Assembly: GCA_029717555.1 (NCBI GenBank)
Contig: JAMDHS010000044.1
Location: forward strand, 124,001-177,287
Direction of reading: 5' to 3'
Source: Peribolospora baueri
Lineage: Eukaryota
DNA: 53,287 nt
Shown here: positions 19,622-47,600 of the stretch, one piece after another
Numbering within the stretch: the first letter of the stretch is position 1
Layout of the letters: each line of letters begins with the position of its first letter
Notes under the pieces: generated by a model
Told to the model about the DNA's origin: nothing
Database searches by the model: none
Seen by the model: only the letters and a program-made list of their open reading frames with translations
Made by a program: the position numbers and the translations under genes

Positions 19622-19928
19622 GGTGCGAAGAAAGGGAAGCAAGTCCGGCCAGGCGAGGCGAGATCGGGTGGGAGTAAGGTGACGGTGGACGGCGAGCTGG
19701 ATCGGAATCAGCCGGCGAGAAAGCTGCTCGGATAGAGCGAGGCAAATATGATGAGTGTGCCTCTGTCCTAGGATTGTCGCGCTCTTTTTTCTCGTCGTCC
19801 TCGTCGTCGTCGTCGTCCGAGGCGGTCACGAGGTTGGGAAGAGGAGCAGAATCGTCGGGAGGGTTGTTCGATCGATGGCACGTGACCCGCGTCGCTCGAC
19901 GTTGCGCTCACCGCCATGGGGGGGGTTA

Positions 19929-20617
19929 TTACAGAGTGACGACCACCGTCGAAGCATACGTCGGATCATGCGACCTGTGCCAGCAAACCAAAGCCACTCG
20001 ACATCGGCTCTACGGTACATTGCAACCGCTCCCGGTTCCGGCTGGTCCTTGGCAATCACTATCTATGGATCATATCACGCAACTACCGTTTAGCAAGGGT
20101 TCGACTCGATTCTTGTCGTCGTGGACAGGCTTGATCTTTTTCGACTTTGAAGTGCTCCTCTCTGTCGACGATCTCTGGCGGAGGCAGAGGAGCGAGTGAG
20201 ACGGGACGGAGCACTTCAAAGTCGAAAAAGGTTTTGGACTCTCGTCTTCAACGCAACAAGCTCGAATATTTCGTCGATTATGAAGGCCTCGGAGTTTAAG
20301 GATGGGTTTCTGCCTCTGATCTCAGCCACGATTACGCACACCTGCTTGGCGGCAAACCTCCGTGAAGAATTTGGAAGCGAAGAGAGGTCCGCGATCAGAA
20401 ACAATGTTCAAGGAAAGAAAGTCCGGTGCCTGCTGACGATGTGGTTGAAGAACTGCGTTGCTATTTTTTGGAGTCGTCAGTGCTATTCGTAGGGATAAAG
20501 TGAGCCATCTTCGTGACCCTGTCCACAACGACAAGAATCGAGTCGAACCCCCGATCCATAGATAGTGATTGACAAGGACCAGCCGGAATTGGGAGCGGTG
20601 GTCGTCACTCCGTAACA
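19929..20617. mobile_element. Degenerate Ty3/Gypsy (chromovirus) retrotransposon relic: two integrase fragments in opposite orientation around a chromodomain fragment
   Basis: The + strand reads [15 protein letters not shown]...[25 protein letters not shown](fs)[11 protein letters not shown] and EHFKVE(fs)KVLDSRLQRNKLEYFVDYEG. The - strand reads [21 protein letters not shown]...NIVSDRGPLFASKFF. All pieces carry frameshifts or deletions. Confidence 0.92.
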
Positions 20618-27682: not shown

Positions 27683-30622
27683 TCAGGCCGCCACGTGCCA
27701 GTCCAGCTTCTTCGCCATGTCCCCCTTCTGCAGCAGCTCTGCGATCTGCTCCACGTCCTTGTCCCCGCGGCCCGACAGCACGACGACCACGTCGGTGCCC
27801 TTGGCCATGCCGCGCGCCAGCTCGTAAGCGCCCCAGATCGCATGCGACGTTTCGAGTGCTGCCGCGCACAAACAGAGACAGACAAACACACACACACAGA
27901 GAAAAAAGAGAGAAAAAGCCGAGTCAGTCGTCCGCCTACGTCCTTATCCGTCCGCTCCCCCAGGCTGGCTCACCCGGAATGATGCCCTCCAGTTCGGTCA
28001 GCATCCTAAAGCCCCGCAGCGCCTCCTCGTCCGTCGCCGTCACGTACTCCGCCCGTCCAGAGTCCTTGAGGTGCGCATGCTCCGGGCCGACGCCTGGGTA
28101 GTCCAGTCCGGCAGACACCGAGTGCGTCTCCAGGATCTGTCCCACCTTGGACTGCAGGATGTACGTCCGGACGCCGTGCAGGACGCCCTTGGTGCCCTTG
28201 GCAAGCGTCGCCGAGTGCCGCACCGTGTCGACGCCGTCGCCGGCCGCCTCGACGCCCACCATCCGCACGCTCTTGTCCTCGATGAAAGGGTGGAACATGC
28301 CAATCGCGTTGCTCCCCCCTCCCACACACGCCACCACCGCCTCCGGCAGCTTGCCCCGCTTCTCCATCATTTGCTCCTTCACCTCCTTGCCGATCACCGA
28401 CTGGAAGTCTCGCACGATCGACGGGAACGGGTGCGGCCCGATCGCCGAGCCGACGAGGTAGTGTGTCGTCGACAGGTTCGTCACCCAGTCGCGGAACGCC
28501 TGGCCGTATACGAACAGAACAAAGGGCGGTGAGCGCGTGCCGAGAGCCAGTTCCGTGCCGTGCCGTCGTCGGCCATTCACGCACCTCATTGATGGCGTCC
28601 TTCAACGTCTTCGAACCGCTCTCCACCGCCACCACTTTGCCGCCCAACATCTTGATCCGGAATGCGTTCAACGCCTGACGCCGAACATCTTCTGCCCCCA
28701 TGTAGATCACGCACTCCATCCCGAACCGAGCGCACACCGTCGCCGTCGCCACGCCGTGCTGGCCCGCCCCCGTTTCTGCAATGATCCGCGTTTTCCCCAG
28801 CCGCCGGGCCAGGAGAATCTGCGGCGCGGGCGGCATGTGCAAAAGGACGCGACGATGAAAATGGGGCCCGGTCAGAACAGAGAATGCAACGCCCATCCAT
28901 CATACTCCGTTCACCGACCGGCTCACCTGCCCGATGGCGTTGTTGATCTTGTGCGATCCCGTATGATTCAGGTCCTCCCTCTTGAACCAAATATTCGCCC
29001 CGCCCGCCTTCTCCGTCAACCTCTCGGCCAAATACAACTCCGAAGGCCGACCGATATAGCCGTACAAACTCTCAAACTCTTTCCAGAATTCTGGATCCGC
29101 TTTGGCAGACCGGTGCGCCGCCTCCAGCTCCACCAGGCAGTCGAATAGCGCCTCTGGCACGTACTGCCCGCCAAACTCGCCAAAGCGCGGCGGCAGCACC
29201 TCGCCGGCCGAGGTCACCACCGTGTCCAAGCCCGGGATGGGGGCCGACTTGGTCGCGTCCGCCACGCCGTCCACGGGAGGGGGAGCGACCTTGCTGGGGC
29301 CGTTCGGCTGCGAGGCATTATTCAGCTGAGACCCCTCTTTCGCCTCCGATCCTTCTTCGTCCCTCCCCGTCACCATCGCACAGTACTTCTCCACCATCTC
29401 TGCCCTCTCATCCTCACGCGCCGTCTTGAGCACGTGGATGATCGTGCTCCCGATGACGACGCCGTCGGCGTGCTCGGCGACCGTCAAAAAGTGCTCCCTC
29501 GTGCTGACACCGAACCCTACCGCGAGGGGGACCTGGGTGTGTGCGCGAATGCGGGATAGGATGGCGGGAAGCTCCGTGTTGACCGAATTGGAGGCACCAG
29601 TGGTGCCCATTTTGGAGACGACGTAGATGAACGAGTCAGCCAGAGTGGAAAGGAAGGCGATGCGTGAGTCCGAGGTGCTGGGAGCGATCAAGGGGACGTA
29701 GGACATGCTGAGAGGTGCGGCGGACGACGGACGAGGAAATGGTGGTGCAAGGTCAAAATGGGTATTGTCGGTCAGGCTGGTCCCTGTAAAAAGAAAGCAA
29801 CGAAGAGACCACTCACGATTCCTTGGTGCACTGCTTCCTAAAATCGACGGCCTCCTCGGGAGGCAAGTCCACAACGATGAAGCCGTTCGCGCCGGCCGCG
29901 TGAGCGTCGCGCACTGCGCGCTCCTCGCCGTACGCCAGAATGGGATTGTAGTAGCCTGAGGGAGCGGGGGAGAGACGAGCGTGACGAGGGATAAAAGACG
30001 ACTTTCAGCGACAAAGGACCGACGAGTTGATCCGAAACCTGCGGCGACGGTGTCGAGGAATGCAGACGCACCCATGAGGAGCACGGGCACGTGGAGTCCT
30101 TTGGTACGAGCCTGCCGGACAAAGTCCAAGCACTCGGCATACCCGACGTCGTATTCAAGCGCGACCTACGGGCGGGCAGGGGACAGGGAAAACAAGCACA
30201 GAAATGAGCGCGGGAGCCCGCGTCCAAGGCGCCATCTCACGTAATGGTCGCAACCGCGGACCAGCACACTCGGAGCTCACATTGTTGCTCTCTTGAATTG
30301 CAGCTCCGTCGGCGACGGGGTCCGAGAAAGGCACGCCCAGCTCGATGACGTCCGCTCCGCCCCTTTGGAGTGCGAGGAGAGTGTCGACGGTCGAGTCCGG
30401 GTGCGGGTGACCCGCTGTGACGAAGGCCACGAAGATGGACTTGTTCTGGGGGCAGAGCGCCACAATTTGATTCGATTCGATTCAATTCGATCAGCTCTGC
30501 TCTCGTCTTGCTTGCCTTGCTTCCTGCAGCCAACAACCGTGAGGCCGGTGGTGCGCTGGGCGGGAAGGAGGGCTCACCTGGGCCTTCTTCGCAGCAAAAG
30601 TCTGCTTGAGAAGTTCGGTCAT
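27683..30622 (-). CDS. TRP5: Tryptophan synthase, fused alpha-beta
   Basis: Alpha domain: [39 protein letters not shown]. Beta domain: [65 protein letters not shown]. All junctions are in frame. Confidence 0.98.
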
Positions 30623-39366: not shown

Positions 39367-42300
39367 TCAAAACACCTGGCCGCTGAGGATGTCCTGGCGG
39401 TCGCCGAGGAAAAACACCGGGATGGTGGACATGTTGACGGGCACGTTGATGGCTTGGCCGCCGGCATAAGTCTCATTTGTCCACCTTGGTTTGGGGGGAG
39501 GGGCGCAGAGGGGGGGGGGGACAAGCAGCAGGGAAGCCAGTTCGTCAGCTCAGAGAAGTGGCCAAGAAACGTCGAGATGCAGCAAAGCCAGGTTGAGCTC
39601 CCACCAGTCTGTCCACGGCTTGGTGCCGTTCTGACCCGTCTTGGGCAGGTACACCTTCCATGAGGTGACGTTGGGCGCGGTGACGGGCGCGATGAGCATG
39701 CGCGGGCCGAACATGTATTGCCTGTCCAGACACACCCGCAATCAAACGGTAAGCAGCGTAGGAATTTGTCGACCGATCCGCTCTCGCATCTCTCTGCCTG
39801 CGCTCCGTTTCACGGCGCGCCGCGGGCACTCACTGCGTGGTGAAATTGGCGTTCTCGGCGGTCCACTTGGGAACGTTTTCGTCCGTCTTTCCAAAGTCCA
39901 TGAAGAGCGGTCTCATGATCATCCGACCCGTCTGGTGGAGCTGGGTGAATAGCGCCTTGATGTACGGCTTGAGAGTGTAGCGGAGCTCGATGAACTGCAA
40001 CGCCGGCCGTCGCGACGGTGAAGGTATTCCATCAGATAACCGTGCGAACGAAAAAAGGACGGGCAAGGATAGATACTCACGGACTTGATGATGGGAGTGT
40101 TCTGTGCTCCGTACGCCCAAGGTTCGTTGTTGCACGTGTAGGCATCCTGGAAGTTGCAGGCCCTGCTGCCGTGGACTCGCATGAACGGGAGGAAGGTGCC
40201 CCACTGACTGTGAGAGGTGAATTTCGCATTGAAGGCCAAGGAAATCAACTCGTCAGGGGCACAAGCCGCGGCAAGAAACACCTGGCTTGAGTCGGTAGGA
40301 AAGGAGCCCTCACAGCCAGCGAACGAAGAGTTGACGGTACTGTTGATGCGCAAGGCGGCAAAGCATCGCCGTCAGTGTCGTACAAGGCCAGCTTGGCCAC
40401 AAGCGCATTGAGCTCACCTCGGGAGTGTCAATGTTCCCGCTCCAAGGTACTGTTGGGTCAGTCTGGAATCCACCGATATCAAGGGTCCACCAACCAAGGC
40501 CGGTCGCGGCCATGGACAGTCCGGCAGGGATCTGGTTGCGGATCGTCTGCAGACGGCGAGATGAAGGGAAGGTAAAATAGTTAGCAACCTCGCCATATAC
40601 ACGGGAAGACGTGTCGTGTCGCCAAGCTTGCGGGAAGAGGAGGCAAAGTCGACCACGTACCTCCCAGACGCTCGTAGTATCTCCGCTCCAAACCAGAGAG
40701 CAATGCCTCTGACCACCGGTATAGGTGCTCCTTGAAAGACTGACATATTGACACTGCGGGTCCTCGGCGCTCGACTTGGTCGCGTTTCGCTGTCCCTCGT
40801 CGATGGCCTTTTGATGGAGCCAGGGGTACATTTTGCCCGCGCCTTCTTGGCTGCCTATTGCGTAGAGGGCGTAGGGACGGGAAAAGGGAATAGACGTGAT
40901 GAGAGGAGACTGACCGTTGTTCTCCCATGCTTCACCGAGAGCGCCGCCGTCCGCCTGGTCGATCTGAATTAGTGAGACGTACGAAACAGTGCATGCTAAG
41001 TCTCTGTTTCAACTAAAAATAAGAAGACTGTGACGAATGAGATGCACACCCAAAAGTTGTGAATGCCATATTGATAGTAGTTCTTGTAAAGCGTATCCCA
41101 TAAGAACTTGCGAGCATATGGATTGGTGCTGTCGCTGCACTCGACAGACGTAGGTTTTGAAGAACAGGAACATGTATTAGAGAGGCAGGACAGCTTCAGA
41201 AATGATCTCTGTGCTGGCCTTCTTTCCCACTTACATCAAGCGCGTGTAAGATCCATTGAAGCTGTTTCCGAGCGGCGAGGACTGATCAGATCTCCAGGGT
41301 TCTGAAGGATCGCTCTCTTTCCATATTCTCACCTATCCGTCACACCTGTGCCATCGCGAGTCCCCGCCAAAAGCCCTTGTGTGATGAGCTCGTTATAGTT
41401 GACGGAGTCATCAGCTGTGGGAAAAGAAACAAGAGTGAGCATCGGTTTGTCCAAAAAGCCGAGGGCGGAGAGGCTCCGCCTTCTGCTCACCCACTGAAGG
41501 CCATAACGAAACCATGAGCTCCGCTCCAGTCAGGTCCTTGACATCCCGGGCCATGGCCGCAGGATCAGGCCATAGATCCTGCTGGAAGCCCCTGCAAGGA
41601 GACAAAATGGATGGGGGGAAGCCGTTTGTGAGACGACCTTTGGGCGTCGTGCATGCGTCAGCCAGAAAGCTCACCAGTCGCCCTGATGAGCCCAGTTGAA
41701 GTAGTCGATCACAATCTAATGAAGGCAAAGAAGGGAAGGGGAGGAATGGAAAGTGCACATCAACACATTCGACCCCGGCTTCATCAATGCATTGGCGCTT
41801 CCGAGATCCCCACCATAGCGACGGGAATGCCATACTGCTGGAACTTCTTCGCAATGTTCTCGACCTCGGTCTGGTTTTCATACCGGAGCTTGCTCTGGAT
41901 GTAGCCGAGGCTGAAGTCGGGCGGGAGTGGCGCGCGGCCTGTGGCTGCCGTGTAGCGCTGTTGGAGGATGTCGTAGTCACCGGGCTCGGCGGCGGTGCTG
42001 AGATTGGATGGGGGAAAGAAAATCGGTGATGAGATTGGCGGATGGAGTGGTATCATAGATACCAATTAAGAGACTTACACGTAGTAGTCGACGACCTGTT
42101 TCAAATGCGACCGCATGAGAGAAATACGAGGGGCAACCAGGACCAGACGATGGGTCAAGGCCTGCAGAAAAGCAAACGTCTTCAAGCAGAAAGATATTCG
42201 ATAGAGGGAACGGCACTCACGTTCGTCTCGGAACTGACAAAACGGTTGCGCAAGGGGCTGAACTCCATTCGACCTTCAGAAGGCAAGTTCTGGAAGCATG

Positions 42301-43546
42301 CAATAGGAAAATAGACCGGTCATTATTGAGCAGAACCACATTGCCGCGAAGACGTCGGCCTTACTTACCCATGCAAACAGATAGCCCTTGTGGTGGAGAA
42401 GTGGGTTTGGTAATGAGAGACTTTTTCGTGTAGGTCAGGGCGATCGACTAGGGAGTGAACCGACCTTGTTCGACATGTACACGGGCACCGGAATGTACGA
42501 GCTACAGAGCAACAGTCGGATAGGCAAAGTCAGCCAAGCCTTCGGTGCTCCCTGCTGAGTTCAGACAGCAGAGGCGATACGCACTGCAAGCGCAGACAAA
42601 GCAAGGACGTCAGCTCAAGCACGCTTTCCGCACGTAGTTTTGAAGTCGATCGGGACAGTTCACCTTCCAGTTCAACAAATCCAAACTCTGTCCCTTCTGG
42701 TTCAGCCTAAAGTCCTGGTGCTGGCCCGTGCCGTAGACCTGTTCATCAGGTGAGGAGGTGAAGCTGAACTCGGCCGCAAAGCTAGAAGTGGCCCAGCTCC
42801 ATCGGTAATAGCGAGGGTTGAGCGCTTTGACGGGGCGGTACTCGTTCAGGATCACCGTGCTCGTGCCATTCGGTTCGACGCGGTCAAAGGTAAGAGTGTA
42901 CTGCGTTAGAGTCGAAAGCCAGGCCGGGTCCGGTCAAGATGAGCGCAACTCCAAAGACGGACGAGGGTTTTCCACTCGATCGAAACGCTCACTCCGTCCG
43001 TCCTGGCGATCATGTTGCCATTCCTGATCGCCGCATACTGGGTGCCGTTCAAAAAGGTGTCATAGCTCATCCCCCTCGCCTTCCCACCCTCAGGACCTTC
43101 GAGCGGCGGATCATAAAGCAAGCTGATCTCATTGCCGGTCGGGGGGCGGTAGACCCAGGTACGCACACGGAAACCGTCGTAGCCGAAGGGCTGAACTAAG
43201 ACTTTCTCGAAACCGTGGTTGATGAGGAAGCCTTCCAGGAGCGATGCGACGGGGTATGCGGGAGACGAAGAAGGAATGGGCAGGAAGACGTTTTAATACG
43301 AAGGTTGGCCAGAGGTTGGTCTGGCGAGGAGCAACGCATACCGGTGGAATTGGGCTGGACATAGCCCGTCGTGTCCGAAGCGCGCTCGACGGGGAAAGAG
43401 TTGGGCTGGACATAGCCCGTCGTGTCTGAACCGCGTTCGACGGGGAAAGGGTCGTTCGGCGAGGGCAAGATGCCTGCGGACGCTAGGCCGAGGAAGAAGA
43501 GAAGAGCCGCCGAGGCGACGGTAATGCGCGGCAACAAGGAACGCAT
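39367..43546 (-). CDS. Secreted glycoside hydrolase family 31 (alpha-xylosidase/alpha-glucosidase-like)
   Basis: A signal peptide is followed by VYGTGQHQD, YIQSKLRY, IVIDYFNW, the nucleophile region FW|IDQADGG, the acid/base WSGDT, WWTLDIGGF, FMRVHGSR and MIMRPLFMDF, ending IPVF...GQVF*. Many introns, including a stwintron. Confidence 0.94.
42502..42664 (-). other. Stwintron ([D1,2] nested spliceosomal intron) in the GH31 gene
   Basis: The internal intron 42663-42584 (GTGAAC...GCTGAC...CAG) splits the external donor G|TGCGT. The external intron has GCTGAC and ends at TAG 42502. Confidence 0.8.
43347..43448 (-). repeat. 51-nt tandem duplication in GH31 exon 1 (FPVERGSDTTGYVQPNS / FPVERASDTTGYVQPNS)
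   Basis: 43347-43397 and 43398-43448 differ at 4 positions. Confidence 0.95.
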
Positions 43547-44609: not shown

Positions 44610-47600
44610 ATGTTCAAGGCACCCAATCCCTACGTGAGATCTCGTCGTCGCCTCAACCTCGAGCTCCACAAAGATAGACGGACAGACGCTGACGCCGTCG
44701 TCCGATTGGCACGCCGATCTCTCCTGTCGTCTTTCCCTAAACATGATGTGTGATGCACCCCATTTGACGGTTCCAGGACGATGTCGTTCTGAAGGCGACC
44801 GATGAGAACCTCACCAGCGAGGATTGGGAGCTCAACATCGACGTGTGCGATCGCGTGCAGAACGAGGATGAGGTCGGGTGAGTGGGTGGGCACGCACGGG
44901 AATGCGCCGGGCGGAATCCTTTAAAGACGATTCTCTCTCCGGAGTTGCTGCTGACCTATGCTTTGACCCGTGCACCCTCAAGCGCCCGCAATTGCGTTGC
45001 GGCGGTTCAGAAGCGCCTGACGCATCGCAATGCCAACGTCCAGCTCTATTCTCTGACGGTGAGCAGGCCTCGGCCCTCATCACGTGTCCGGCCAAACATG
45101 TAATCACTGTCTTCAGACTCGCACTCACGAAATTCCACATTAATGCTCGCACCCTTATCCCTTCCGTCGTTGTTCCATTCACCCCGACTCAGCTCGCAGA
45201 CGCGCTCTCAAAGAACTGTGGACTGATCGTCAACCGCGAGTTGGCGTCTAAAGCGTTCACGCAGACGCTCCAGCGTATTGTGACGGATAGGGTGAGTTTG
45301 CGGGTCAACTCTGGTTTTCTACGTCATCTCGGGGAATGGTAGCGTGGGAAGATGGGGCCGCCACGTCGGCCGTCTGAGGTGCCACGTCGGCAGTAGGAAG
45401 ATTCGAAAGGGAAGGCTTACGTTCAGGCGATGTCTTTCTTGCCTCCTGTACTTCCTTTCTCCATCCATCACCATCTCTTCTTTTGCTGTCACACCCATTC
45501 AGAATACGCATGCGTTTGTTAGGCAGCGGATCTTGCAGCTGATCAAGCAGTGGGCGAATGAGTTCCGCGAGGACGAGAGTTTGGGCATCATGGAGGAAAC
45601 ATACGAAACACTGAAGAGTCAGAGTAGGTACACGTTCCAGTTCCTCGAAAGAGGCAAGCTTCGGAGAGCCTATTTCGTTGATTGTTTTGTTTGCCCTTAC
45701 CATGCACTGGTCAAATTCACAGACTACAGCTTCGACGTGGAAGAACCAGCCCCTGTGGAACCGTCGGTCGAAGAGCTTCGCAAGGAGGACGAAGAGCTGC
45801 GGCGCGTCCTCGAGCTCTCCGTCCACGATCAAGGCGGCCGACAAGCCTGGTTGAAGTACTACGAGAAGGAGCAGCAGCAGAAGCAGGAGCAGCAAGCCAG
45901 CGCGAGCGGATCGGGGACGAGCGTTGGTGCCCACGCGACGCCTAATCCTCCCTCCTCAGTTGCCGCCGCCCCCGGCTACGTGCCCGGTCCCGCGCCGGTC
46001 AGGCAGCAGAGCCTGGCTTCCGTCCCTGCCGCCGATTCGCGCACCCAGGCCGCCCCCATCTCCACTACCGTCGCTGCGGCAGCAACGACTTCCACATCGG
46101 TGGCTTCGACCACCTCCCCAACTTCCCCCGGATCCTCTGGTGCGAACAAGCCCAGCGTGTCGCGCGTGCGCGCACTCTACGACTTCCAGCCCACGGAGCA
46201 GGGCGAGCTGGCTTTCCAGAAGGGAGATGTGGTTCGCGTGATCGAGTCAGCGTACAAGGATTGGTGGCGGGGGGAGCTCAAAGGCCAGACGGGTATCTTC
46301 CCCGTCAACTATGTCGTGAGTGATCGCTCGCGCCCTTCCCCTTCGCCCTATTTCGACTCTGATCTTACTTCCTTGTCTTCCTTTCCCTCTGTTTATGTTT
46401 TATAGGAGAAGCTTGCCGATCCGACGCCCGCAGAGCTGGCTAAGGATGCGCAGATGGAGGCCCTCGTCTTCGGTCAGGCTGCCAACATCGATCGTCTCTT
46501 GAGCCTTCTTAGGGGTCTCGACCCGCGCAAGGATAATTTGGCTGAGAATGAGGAGCTGCAGGTGTGTGGTGCTGCTGCGAACTGAGTTTTCTCATCTCTT
46601 CTTTTTTTCTTACAAAGAGTTTACCCGCTTTTCCGCACACCCCCACTTCCTACAGGATCTCTACCAAATCTCCCTCGCCCTCCGCCCGAAGATCGTCCGA
46701 CTGATCGACAAGTACAGTCAAAAGATGGCGGATCTGAAGAGCATGAACGAGAAGTTTGTCACCGCACGCAGTACCTTCGATCGGATGATGGAGGAGAGCT
46801 TGGCCAAGTATAATCCCCGTGGTGAGTCGGTGCTTCTCGCCTTTGCTTTGGAAATTGCACATGTGAAGAACAGGTCGGGCCCGGTGGATGAACTGGCTGA
46901 CATGCTCCGCTTTGCGCTTTTCTTAGCCGCCGCCTCCGACTATATCCAGGTGCGCTCTGGGTACCCACAGTCAGGTTACGGTTACGCCTCGCCCGGCCAG
47001 CAAGAGGCCTACGCAGCCTACTATGCTGCTCAGCAGGGCCAGTCTCAAGCTCAACAGGCGGCTGAGGCTCAGCGACAAACTTACGCTACATACGCCCAGG
47101 GTCAACCTCAGGGCGGGTACGACTACAGCGCTTACTACCAGCAGGCGCAGCAGGGCCAACAGCAGGCTTATCAGCAACAGGTAAGCAGCGTAGTGGATGT
47201 TCCGTCCGGACGGATATGGAAATCTGGCGGAGAACGGTTGTGCTGACACGTTTGCACGTCCTTTGTGCACTTCCGTTCTTCCCCCCGCCGTGCTTGCGAC
47301 GTCTCACAACAGGCTAGTCAGGATGCGTACGCTGCTTGGTACGCCGCCCAGAGCGCTAACGCGTAAGTAACTCCTACGGGGATGGCGGATAATTCCTGCA
47401 CGGTACTCCTTCTCGACCTTATACAACATTCGTTCGTTCGCGGAGGACTTGAAGCTGAGTAGAATCAAATTGTTTTATGGTAGCGTGCAAGTCGCTCAGC
47501 AGCAACAGCAGCAACAGCAGCAGCAGCAGCAGCAGCAGTATCAACAGCAGCAACAGGAGCAGCCGCAACAGCAGCCAACTGGGGCGAATGGGTACGGTTA

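Follow-up and report, generated by a model that had tools for sequence, protein, structure and literature searches.

How is a coding sequence read through an interruption that no single canonical intron can remove? The window (the whole stretch of 53,287 nucleotides analysed here) carries on its minus strand a GH31 gene in which 163 nt, 42664-42502, interrupt the region of similarity to homologous proteins. The sequence of this gap begins with GG, and for this reason no single canonical intron can remove all of it. The gap is probably a spliceosomal twin intron (stwintron) of the [D1,2] kind, which would be removed in two steps, an inner intron first and an outer one afterwards. Stwintrons serve as models for intron gain and loss. 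An earlier note on this DNA had made the same proposal, and the coordinates and motifs that it gave for the interruption were all found when the minus strand was read.

The GH31 gene and its host

The gene and the exons that matter most for the argument are as follows.

43546-39367, minus strand: GH31 alpha-xylosidase-like gene, from spliced alignment to protein P0001 and Pfam matches
42900-42665, minus strand: exon 3, 236 nt, 57% identical to P0001, ending with the AA of the junction Asn codon
42501-42465, minus strand: exon 4, 37 nt, in which C completes the Asn codon and conserved S-Y-I-P-V-P follows
42386-42369, minus strand: exon 5, an 18-nt micro-exon from the alignment and the coordinate build, which illustrates the local crowding of introns

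P0001 is an alpha-xylosidase of 750 residues from the ascomycete Hortaea werneckii, 61.5% identical to the GH31 protein over its whole length; the name "alpha-xylosidase" is the source databases' own label, both for P0001 and for the metagenome proteins mentioned below. The whole GH31 gene is collinear with P0001 (region 43235-39370 by tblastn), which carries PF13802, PF01055 and PF21365, in keeping with the GH31 set of an N-terminal mutarotase-like domain, a TIM barrel and a C-terminal domain; single exons of the gene match PF01055 (E 3e-16 and 1e-7) and, in one exon, PF13802 (E 8e-5, below the curated cut-off). The 79-residue upstream exon matched only one protein, P0001, among 147 candidates. 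A custom protein-to-genome aligner, phase-aware and allowing GT/GC-AG introns, gave the other 18 interruptions of the gene as GT-AG introns of 62-125 nt; the first intron, 43341-43232, was placed by hand from the match of exon 1 to protein P0053. Built by coordinates according to the two-step model, the gene has 20 exons and a coding sequence of 2352 nt with one terminal stop, an open frame of 783 residues, and it includes four micro-exons at 42079-42095 (17 nt), 42369-42386 (18 nt), 41235-41261 (27 nt) and 40314-40339 (26 nt). Twenty exons in 2.35 kb of coding sequence is a very high intron density for a fungal gene.

Two further features of the gene are recorded here in their own right. At 43350-43449, in minus-strand exon 1, two tandem copies of a 51-nt unit (93% matches) double a stretch of 17 residues just past an N-terminus that is predicted to resemble a signal peptide; the stretch Y-V-Q-P-N-S-T-G, with which the second copy closes, is also present in relatives such as P0053. 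In the last intron of the gene, a minus-strand run of about 10 C lies at 39500-39520; it is the kind of site at which long-read assemblies err, and a length error there would be harmless because the run is intronic.

The affiliation of the host was assessed with a second gene of the window.

30622-27704, minus strand: bifunctional tryptophan synthase gene, intact, with 7 GT-AG introns of 85-132 nt

Its product is closest to proteins of Ustilaginomycotina (60-64% identity over the searched region) among the 120 best matches listed, from which Pucciniomycotina are absent. A tree of 49 proteins was built by a quick maximum-likelihood method, with groups assigned from organism names of which two were checked in the taxonomy; in it, the tryptophan synthase falls inside Basidiomycota with an SH-aLRT value of 100 and is sister to the 12 Ustilaginomycotina sampled with support of 85. 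The tree thus bears out the basidiomycete origin that had been suspected from the sequence. The GH31 protein itself is nearer to Dothideomycete enzymes, such as that of Hortaea werneckii, than to the agaricomycete protein P0002 (50.6% identity); the gene nonetheless has five intron positions in common with an intron-rich metagenome locus, L017. Unequal rates or an old transfer may account for the Dothideomycete-like sequence, and the GH31 family looks patchy among fungi.

Elsewhere in the window, on the plus strand, a long open frame at 45296-46405 encodes, according to Pfam, an SH3 domain as well as a fragment of a VHS domain, and presumably represents a protein resembling the endosomal sorting protein Hse1. 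Another plus-strand open frame, 19678-20199, has a Cys/His-rich stretch that recalls retrotransposon integrase, with no Pfam match at E 0.001.

Layout of the interruption

Read on the minus strand, the gap divides into three parts.

42664, minus strand: G, the putative first base of the external donor and at the same time position -1 of the internal one (from the sequence; the alignment is best with the gap starting at 42664)
42663-42584, minus strand: putative internal intron, 80 nt, with donor GTGAAC, branch motif CTGAC and acceptor CAG
42583-42502, minus strand: remaining 82 nt of the putative external intron, which measures 83 nt once G42664 is counted, with the composite donor, CTGAC and TAG

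The upstream exon terminates with ...AAC TGG AA at 42665 and is followed by G42664 and then by GT at 42663-42662, which gives the 5'-GGT start required of a [D1,2] stwintron. The internal donor GTGAAC occupies 42663-42658 and the internal acceptor CAG occupies 42586-42584; between them, CTGAC at 42613-42609 places the branch A at 42610, 26 nt ahead of the intron's end, and the longer motif GCTGAC fits DYTRAY and lies 22 nt ahead of CAG, the first AG past the branch A. TGCGT, at 42583-42579, adjoins the internal acceptor and with G42664 would make up the composite donor GTGCGT. The external unit has its own CTGAC at 42533-42529, with the branch A at 42530, 28 nt ahead of the intron end; here GCTGAC is 24 nt ahead of the acceptor TAG (42504-42502), again the first AG past the branch A, and the downstream exon opens with C at 42501. 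Of the 8 AG dinucleotides in the 163-nt gap, none but that at 42585-42584 has T as its next base, so that there is a single nested solution. An intact GTGCGT is already present at 42584-42579 in the primary transcript, a feature that the earlier note overlooked.

The mature junction and homologous proteins

When the aligner was restricted to canonical introns, its score was 2196 and a 5-nt micro-exon, identical to the branch motif itself, was forced into the gene; when a GG start was allowed, 42664-42502 was removed in phase 2 and the score rose to 2220. Joining 42665 to 42501 gives N-W-N-S-Y-I-P, which corresponds to N-F-N-T-H-I-P in P0001. A HMMER search with P0001 against 1.84 billion representatives returned 8755 relatives, of which the best 150 were listed; 107 of the proteins compared span the site. 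The column of the junction codon is Asn in 88 of these 107 homologues and the Pro column of the exon 4 stretch is conserved in 106, and the local length equals that of the two-step model in 95, the others having insertions of 1-7 residues (10 proteins) or deletions (2 proteins). Related metagenome loci, 17 in all, encode N-(F/Y)-N-(T/S) at this place without exception and without an indel; 16 of them are intron-poor and uninterrupted at the site, and L017 is intron-rich, with 19 introns. The N-x-N-S-x-I-P pattern that the earlier note had ascribed to GH31 homologues, and the junction 42665/42501 predicted with it, are therefore supported by the Asn codon, by the shared length and by read-through in all 17 loci, and the absence of an insertion from orthologues, suggested earlier as a check on the model, was found in the same 95 homologues and 17 loci. 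Taken together, the conserved Asn, the conserved length and the 17 loci lend strong support to the predicted removal of exactly these 163 nt from the mature message.

Only this removal gives a match free of gaps, because models built from canonical splice sites add 2, 18 or 28 residues or delete 4. Splicing in one step from GT at 42663 to AG at 42502 shifts the frame, as the earlier note had stated, and leads to a stop at residue 260; retention of the external unit leads to a stop at residue 255. The TGC micro-exon that it had considered proved to be out of frame, again as claimed, and was dropped. A donor GTTGAA at 42676 paired with the acceptor at 42502 stays in frame and was rejected for the deletion of 4 residues and for the poor donor. 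A U12-type reading of GTATCG at 42580 is out of frame; to our knowledge, minor-spliceosome introns are not expected in Dikarya.

Three canonical variants of the gene model are in frame and free of stops, and each would imply a real protein with a local insertion.

Donor 42663, acceptor 42555, minus strand: canonical variant 1, 18 residues added and N changed to K
Donor GTGCGG at 42633, acceptor 42555, minus strand: canonical variant 2, a 79-nt intron, 28 residues added
Two introns flanking a 5-nt micro-exon at 42613-42609, minus strand: canonical variant 3, 2 residues added

The first had been named as a competing model, correctly described as in frame with a net gain of 18 residues; the second and third had been overlooked. 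A gene finder limited to GT-AG introns would pick one of the three, just as our own canonical-only run chose the micro-exon, and a branch-to-acceptor distance of 55 nt for the acceptor at 42555 lies inside the local range; the donor at 42633, moreover, has G at +5. These models nevertheless sacrifice the Asn conserved in 88 of the 107 homologues and require an insertion where 95 of the 107 have no indel, where the largest insertion is 7 residues and where the 17 loci have none. The inserts score -0.21 bits per codon; among 1442 exon windows only 0.2% fall to this level, and among 249 stop-free intron windows 24% rise to it. By its codon usage, then, the would-be coding insert looks intronic. 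It would also hold the second CTGAC, together with a pyrimidine tract whose closing TAG falls at the very point where the homologues become similar again. Variant 3 in addition turns the branch motif itself into an exon, and its first intron, at 50 nt, is shorter than all of the 24 reference introns introduced below and lacks CTRAY, while its second donor lacks the G at +5. We consider a purely canonical gene model very unlikely.

Comparison with local introns and tests of chance

The 24 reference introns comprise 17 from the GH31 gene and the 7 of the tryptophan synthase gene (30622-27704). They measure 62-132 nt with a median of 100 nt, so that the nested units, at 80 and 83 nt, are of typical length, whereas a single unit of 162-163 nt would exceed all of them. 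The composite donor GTGCGT, which was said to be used elsewhere in the window, does serve as donor in 2 of the 7 tryptophan synthase introns, at 30071 and 28584; it has G at +5, T at +6 and, as in 4 of the 24 reference introns, C at +4, departing there from the W of the Aspergillus-based hybrid motif HAG|TRWGY. In the internal donor GTGAAC, which AAG precedes, positions +3 and +4 are G and A, but +5 is A and +6 is C, compared with G at +5 in all 24 reference introns; this donor thus mismatches GGTRWGY at +5, a point overlooked in the earlier note. The exonic AAG ahead of this donor may compensate for the absent G at +5. In the reference introns the distance from branch point to acceptor ranges from 20 to 68 nt and several skip an AG; given this loose spacing and these skipped AGs, the argument from the first AG carries less weight here than in ascomycetes.

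To estimate how often such an arrangement arises by chance, the first 7 and last 34 nt of the gap were held fixed and the middle 122 nt were dinucleotide-shuffled or replaced by random segments of the window. The full architecture was defined as YAG followed by T, a composite donor with G at +5, both units of at least 60 nt, CTRAY 15-70 nt upstream and no earlier AG. The shuffles produced it 36 times and the random segments 22 times, each in 20,000 trials; with neither the first AG nor YAG demanded, the looser architecture appeared in 864 and 325 of 20,000, respectively. The inner architecture is unlikely to be due to chance. The published [D1,2] pattern (PMC5587772), which according to the available text of that paper was built on an Aspergillus nidulans consensus, has no match in the window as written. 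Relaxed at two positions (the inner +5 to R, and +4 to N), it has a sole match on both strands of the window, at 42664, compared with a mean of 0.15 matches in 60 block-shuffled windows.

These results bear on a simpler interpretation, that G42664 is a one-base assembly error or a strain-private insertion, the real intron being a plain GT-AG intron of 162 nt (GTGAAC ... TAG) in phase 2 and the inner signals coincidental. Such an intron would yield the same mature message and protein, so that all of the homology evidence fits it equally, and it relies on the same weak donor. Because a working enzyme always needs the GTGAAC donor, the weakness of that donor does not separate a stwintron from an assembly error. 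What does speak against the error is that an internal CTGAC and CAG followed by TGCGT would have to be present by chance, at the frequencies just given (36 of 20,000 shuffles, or 864 under the looser definition). The intron would moreover be longer than the longest reference intron (132 nt), a strong 3' site 80 nt from its donor would act as a decoy, and without G42664 its weak donor would lose even the G at -1. The approximately 4.4 kb of coding sequence in the GH31 and tryptophan synthase genes contains no frameshift, and GG is not a typical site of homopolymer error. On this evidence a misplaced G is unlikely, yet of the interpretations set against the stwintron it is one to be taken seriously.

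A model of two-step splicing

In the stwintron model, the spliceosome would first excise the 80-nt internal U2 intron, 42663-42584 (GTGAAC ... CTGAC ... CAG). G42664 would thereby meet TGCGT and form GTGCGT, a donor that is absent as an outer donor until the inner intron has been excised. Together with the second CTGAC, which has its branch A at 42530, and the TAG that ends at 42502, this donor would then define an external intron of 83 nt. Excision of that intron would join 42665 to 42501, so that the Asn codon AAC is formed and the GH31 sequence has its conserved length. The layout of the motifs, the fit of the two units to local intron sizes and the need, from homology, for the junction 42665/42501 were shown here; the order of the steps, and splicing as such, are predicted from the DNA.

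The order is constrained by the alternatives. If the pre-existing GTGCGT at 42584-42579 were used first, the internal acceptor would be destroyed, leaving ...GCA|C without AG; because the next exon starts with C, the upstream unit is left without an AG whenever the outer intron is spliced first, and there is no [A2,3] alternative. Splicing in one distal step and the route by way of the pre-existing GTGCGT both give premature stops, and for a productive message the upstream unit would therefore have to go first. Such an upstream-first order would fit co-transcriptional, intron-defined splicing.

The same constraints raise the question of whether the gene yields an enzyme at all. The weak internal donor makes inefficient or unproductive splicing more plausible, and with two routes to early stops (residues 260 and 255) and a competing intact GTGCGT at 42584 in the primary transcript, the gene might be decaying or regulated by unproductive splicing, giving mostly frameshifted messages and no functional enzyme from this copy. 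Against decay, all of its other exons and introns are intact, down to the micro-exons of 17, 18, 26 and 27 nt, its 783-residue frame is uninterrupted, and identity to the Hortaea enzyme is 61.5% over the whole length. We regard this possibility as highly improbable.

A single non-canonical step from GG to AG would also produce the required junction, at the price of leaving a complete set of inner signals unexplained. We know of no accepted class of GG-AG U2 introns. In the available text of the study that formulated the [D1,2] pattern, a 5'-GGT start is treated as a mark of [D1,2] stwintrons (PMC5587772). Removal of all 163 nt in one such step is the least probable of the interpretations considered here, and the stwintron remains the one that we prefer.

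Evolution of the intron position

The stwintron position corresponds to residue 204 of P0001, phase 2. A first metagenome scan gave 139 pattern matches and no relative; a second scan, using alignment A1, gave the 17 related loci, in none of which is there an intron at the junction codon. Of the 19 aligned intron positions of the GH31 gene, 5 are common to L017 and none to five of the intron-poor loci compared (L004, L009, L010 and L013 among them). The GH31 intron at position 672, phase 2, lies one codon from an intron at 673, phase 2, of L011-L016, and the two may occupy the same position, the alignment being ambiguous at two Gln codons. In L017, the sole intron-rich relative found, the stwintron position is empty, and there is an intron at residue 195, phase 1; conservation of the position consequently gives no support to the stwintron. 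The protein search and the two metagenome scans found no closer relative with the same intron.

Possible origins of the nested arrangement were also considered. A propagating ("sister") stwintron or introner was rejected because the best secondary match in the window is 11 nt long, and a special fold because its z-score is -0.63 and 44 of 200 shuffles fold as well. The inner and outer introns align with a score of 46, which 10 of 2000 shuffles reach; their normalised score of 0.575 is no higher than unrelated canonical intron pairs can reach (48 pairs, mean 0.42, maximum 0.73), and tandem duplication of one intron was rejected on this ground.

Relation to known stwintrons

The original description of stwintrons reportedly dates from 2013. 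According to the available text of papers by Flipphi, Fekete, Karaffa and co-workers (PMC5587772, PMC5639578, PMC9024468, PMC12403724), [D1,2] stwintrons of Pezizomycotina occur in the lipS and DHA1 genes of Aspergillus and number more than 1500 in Hypoxylaceae. In common with those described there, the GH31 candidate has the form 5'-G|GT...AG|T..., in which a putative internal U2 intron splits the external donor after its base 1, ahead of base 2, and consists of two short units of ordinary intron size, each with its own branch motif and acceptor. As reported for Hypoxylon stwintrons, splicing in one distal step would leave the G exonic and shift the frame by +1, and as reported for many [D1,2] stwintrons of Pezizomycotina, the position is unoccupied in relatives. 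The candidate differs from the Aspergillus-based pattern at two positions, A at +5 of the inner donor and C at +4 of the outer donor, and from the propagating class, as portrayed in those texts, in that the window holds no sister copies of it, inverted-repeat symmetry is absent and its fold is not unusually stable (z -0.63). It thus resembles the class that the same authors, in the text available, call "uniquely occurring" rather than the propagating one. Here the downstream exon begins with C, and so an [A2,3] alternative route does not exist.

A comparable principle operates in animals, in which recursive splicing at zero-length exons (in Drosophila Ubx and others; work cited in PMC6616335) regenerates in its first step a 5' splice site for the second. 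The two-step model shares this use of a regenerated 5' splice site; in animal recursive splicing, unlike in the GH31 candidate, the whole of the regenerated donor lies downstream of the acceptor (AG|GT), and the units, which are very long introns, abut instead of being nested.

Outside Pezizomycotina, [D4,5], [D6,7] and [D7,8] stwintrons have been described from Lipomyces (Saccharomycotina) in a paper whose available text calls them the first outside that group and proposes "stwintronisation", the evolution of new splice sites inside an older intron (PMC7138796). As described there, the Lipomyces stwintrons are, like the GH31 candidate, nested U2 introns beyond Pezizomycotina; unlike it, they split the donor at other positions, belong to Ascomycota and have an intermediate verified by cDNA (PMC7138796). 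In the openly available literature searched, no report of a basidiomycete stwintron was found, in agreement with the earlier note, which knew of no such example. The available text of the stwintron literature mentions basidiomycetes only as being without a given stwintron or gene. Within the literature so covered, and as far as its available text goes, stwintrons have been described only from Ascomycota, namely Pezizomycotina and Lipomyces.

On balance, we lean towards the view that the 20-exon GH31 gene contains a genuine basidiomycete [D1,2] stwintron at a lineage-specific position, the first reported for the phylum. The candidate departs from the [D1,2] stwintrons of Pezizomycotina in its basidiomycete host; as the kind of element is already well described and its presence here is predicted from sequence, the gain is moderate. 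The available text of the work on Aspergillus notes that automatic GT-AG gene models must err on such elements (PMC5587772), and this holds here as well: a 5'-GGT start is beyond automatic annotation, which would give the GH31 gene a frameshift or a spurious insertion, or would truncate its protein. If the model is correct, gene finders bound to GT-AG introns would mis-model genes of this kind in intron-rich basidiomycete genomes. The known range of stwintrons would widen to the sister phylum Basidiomycota, where the two-step order would be direct evidence for intron-definition splicing, and neither splicing from the inside out in two steps nor "stwintronisation" would be confined to ascomycetes.
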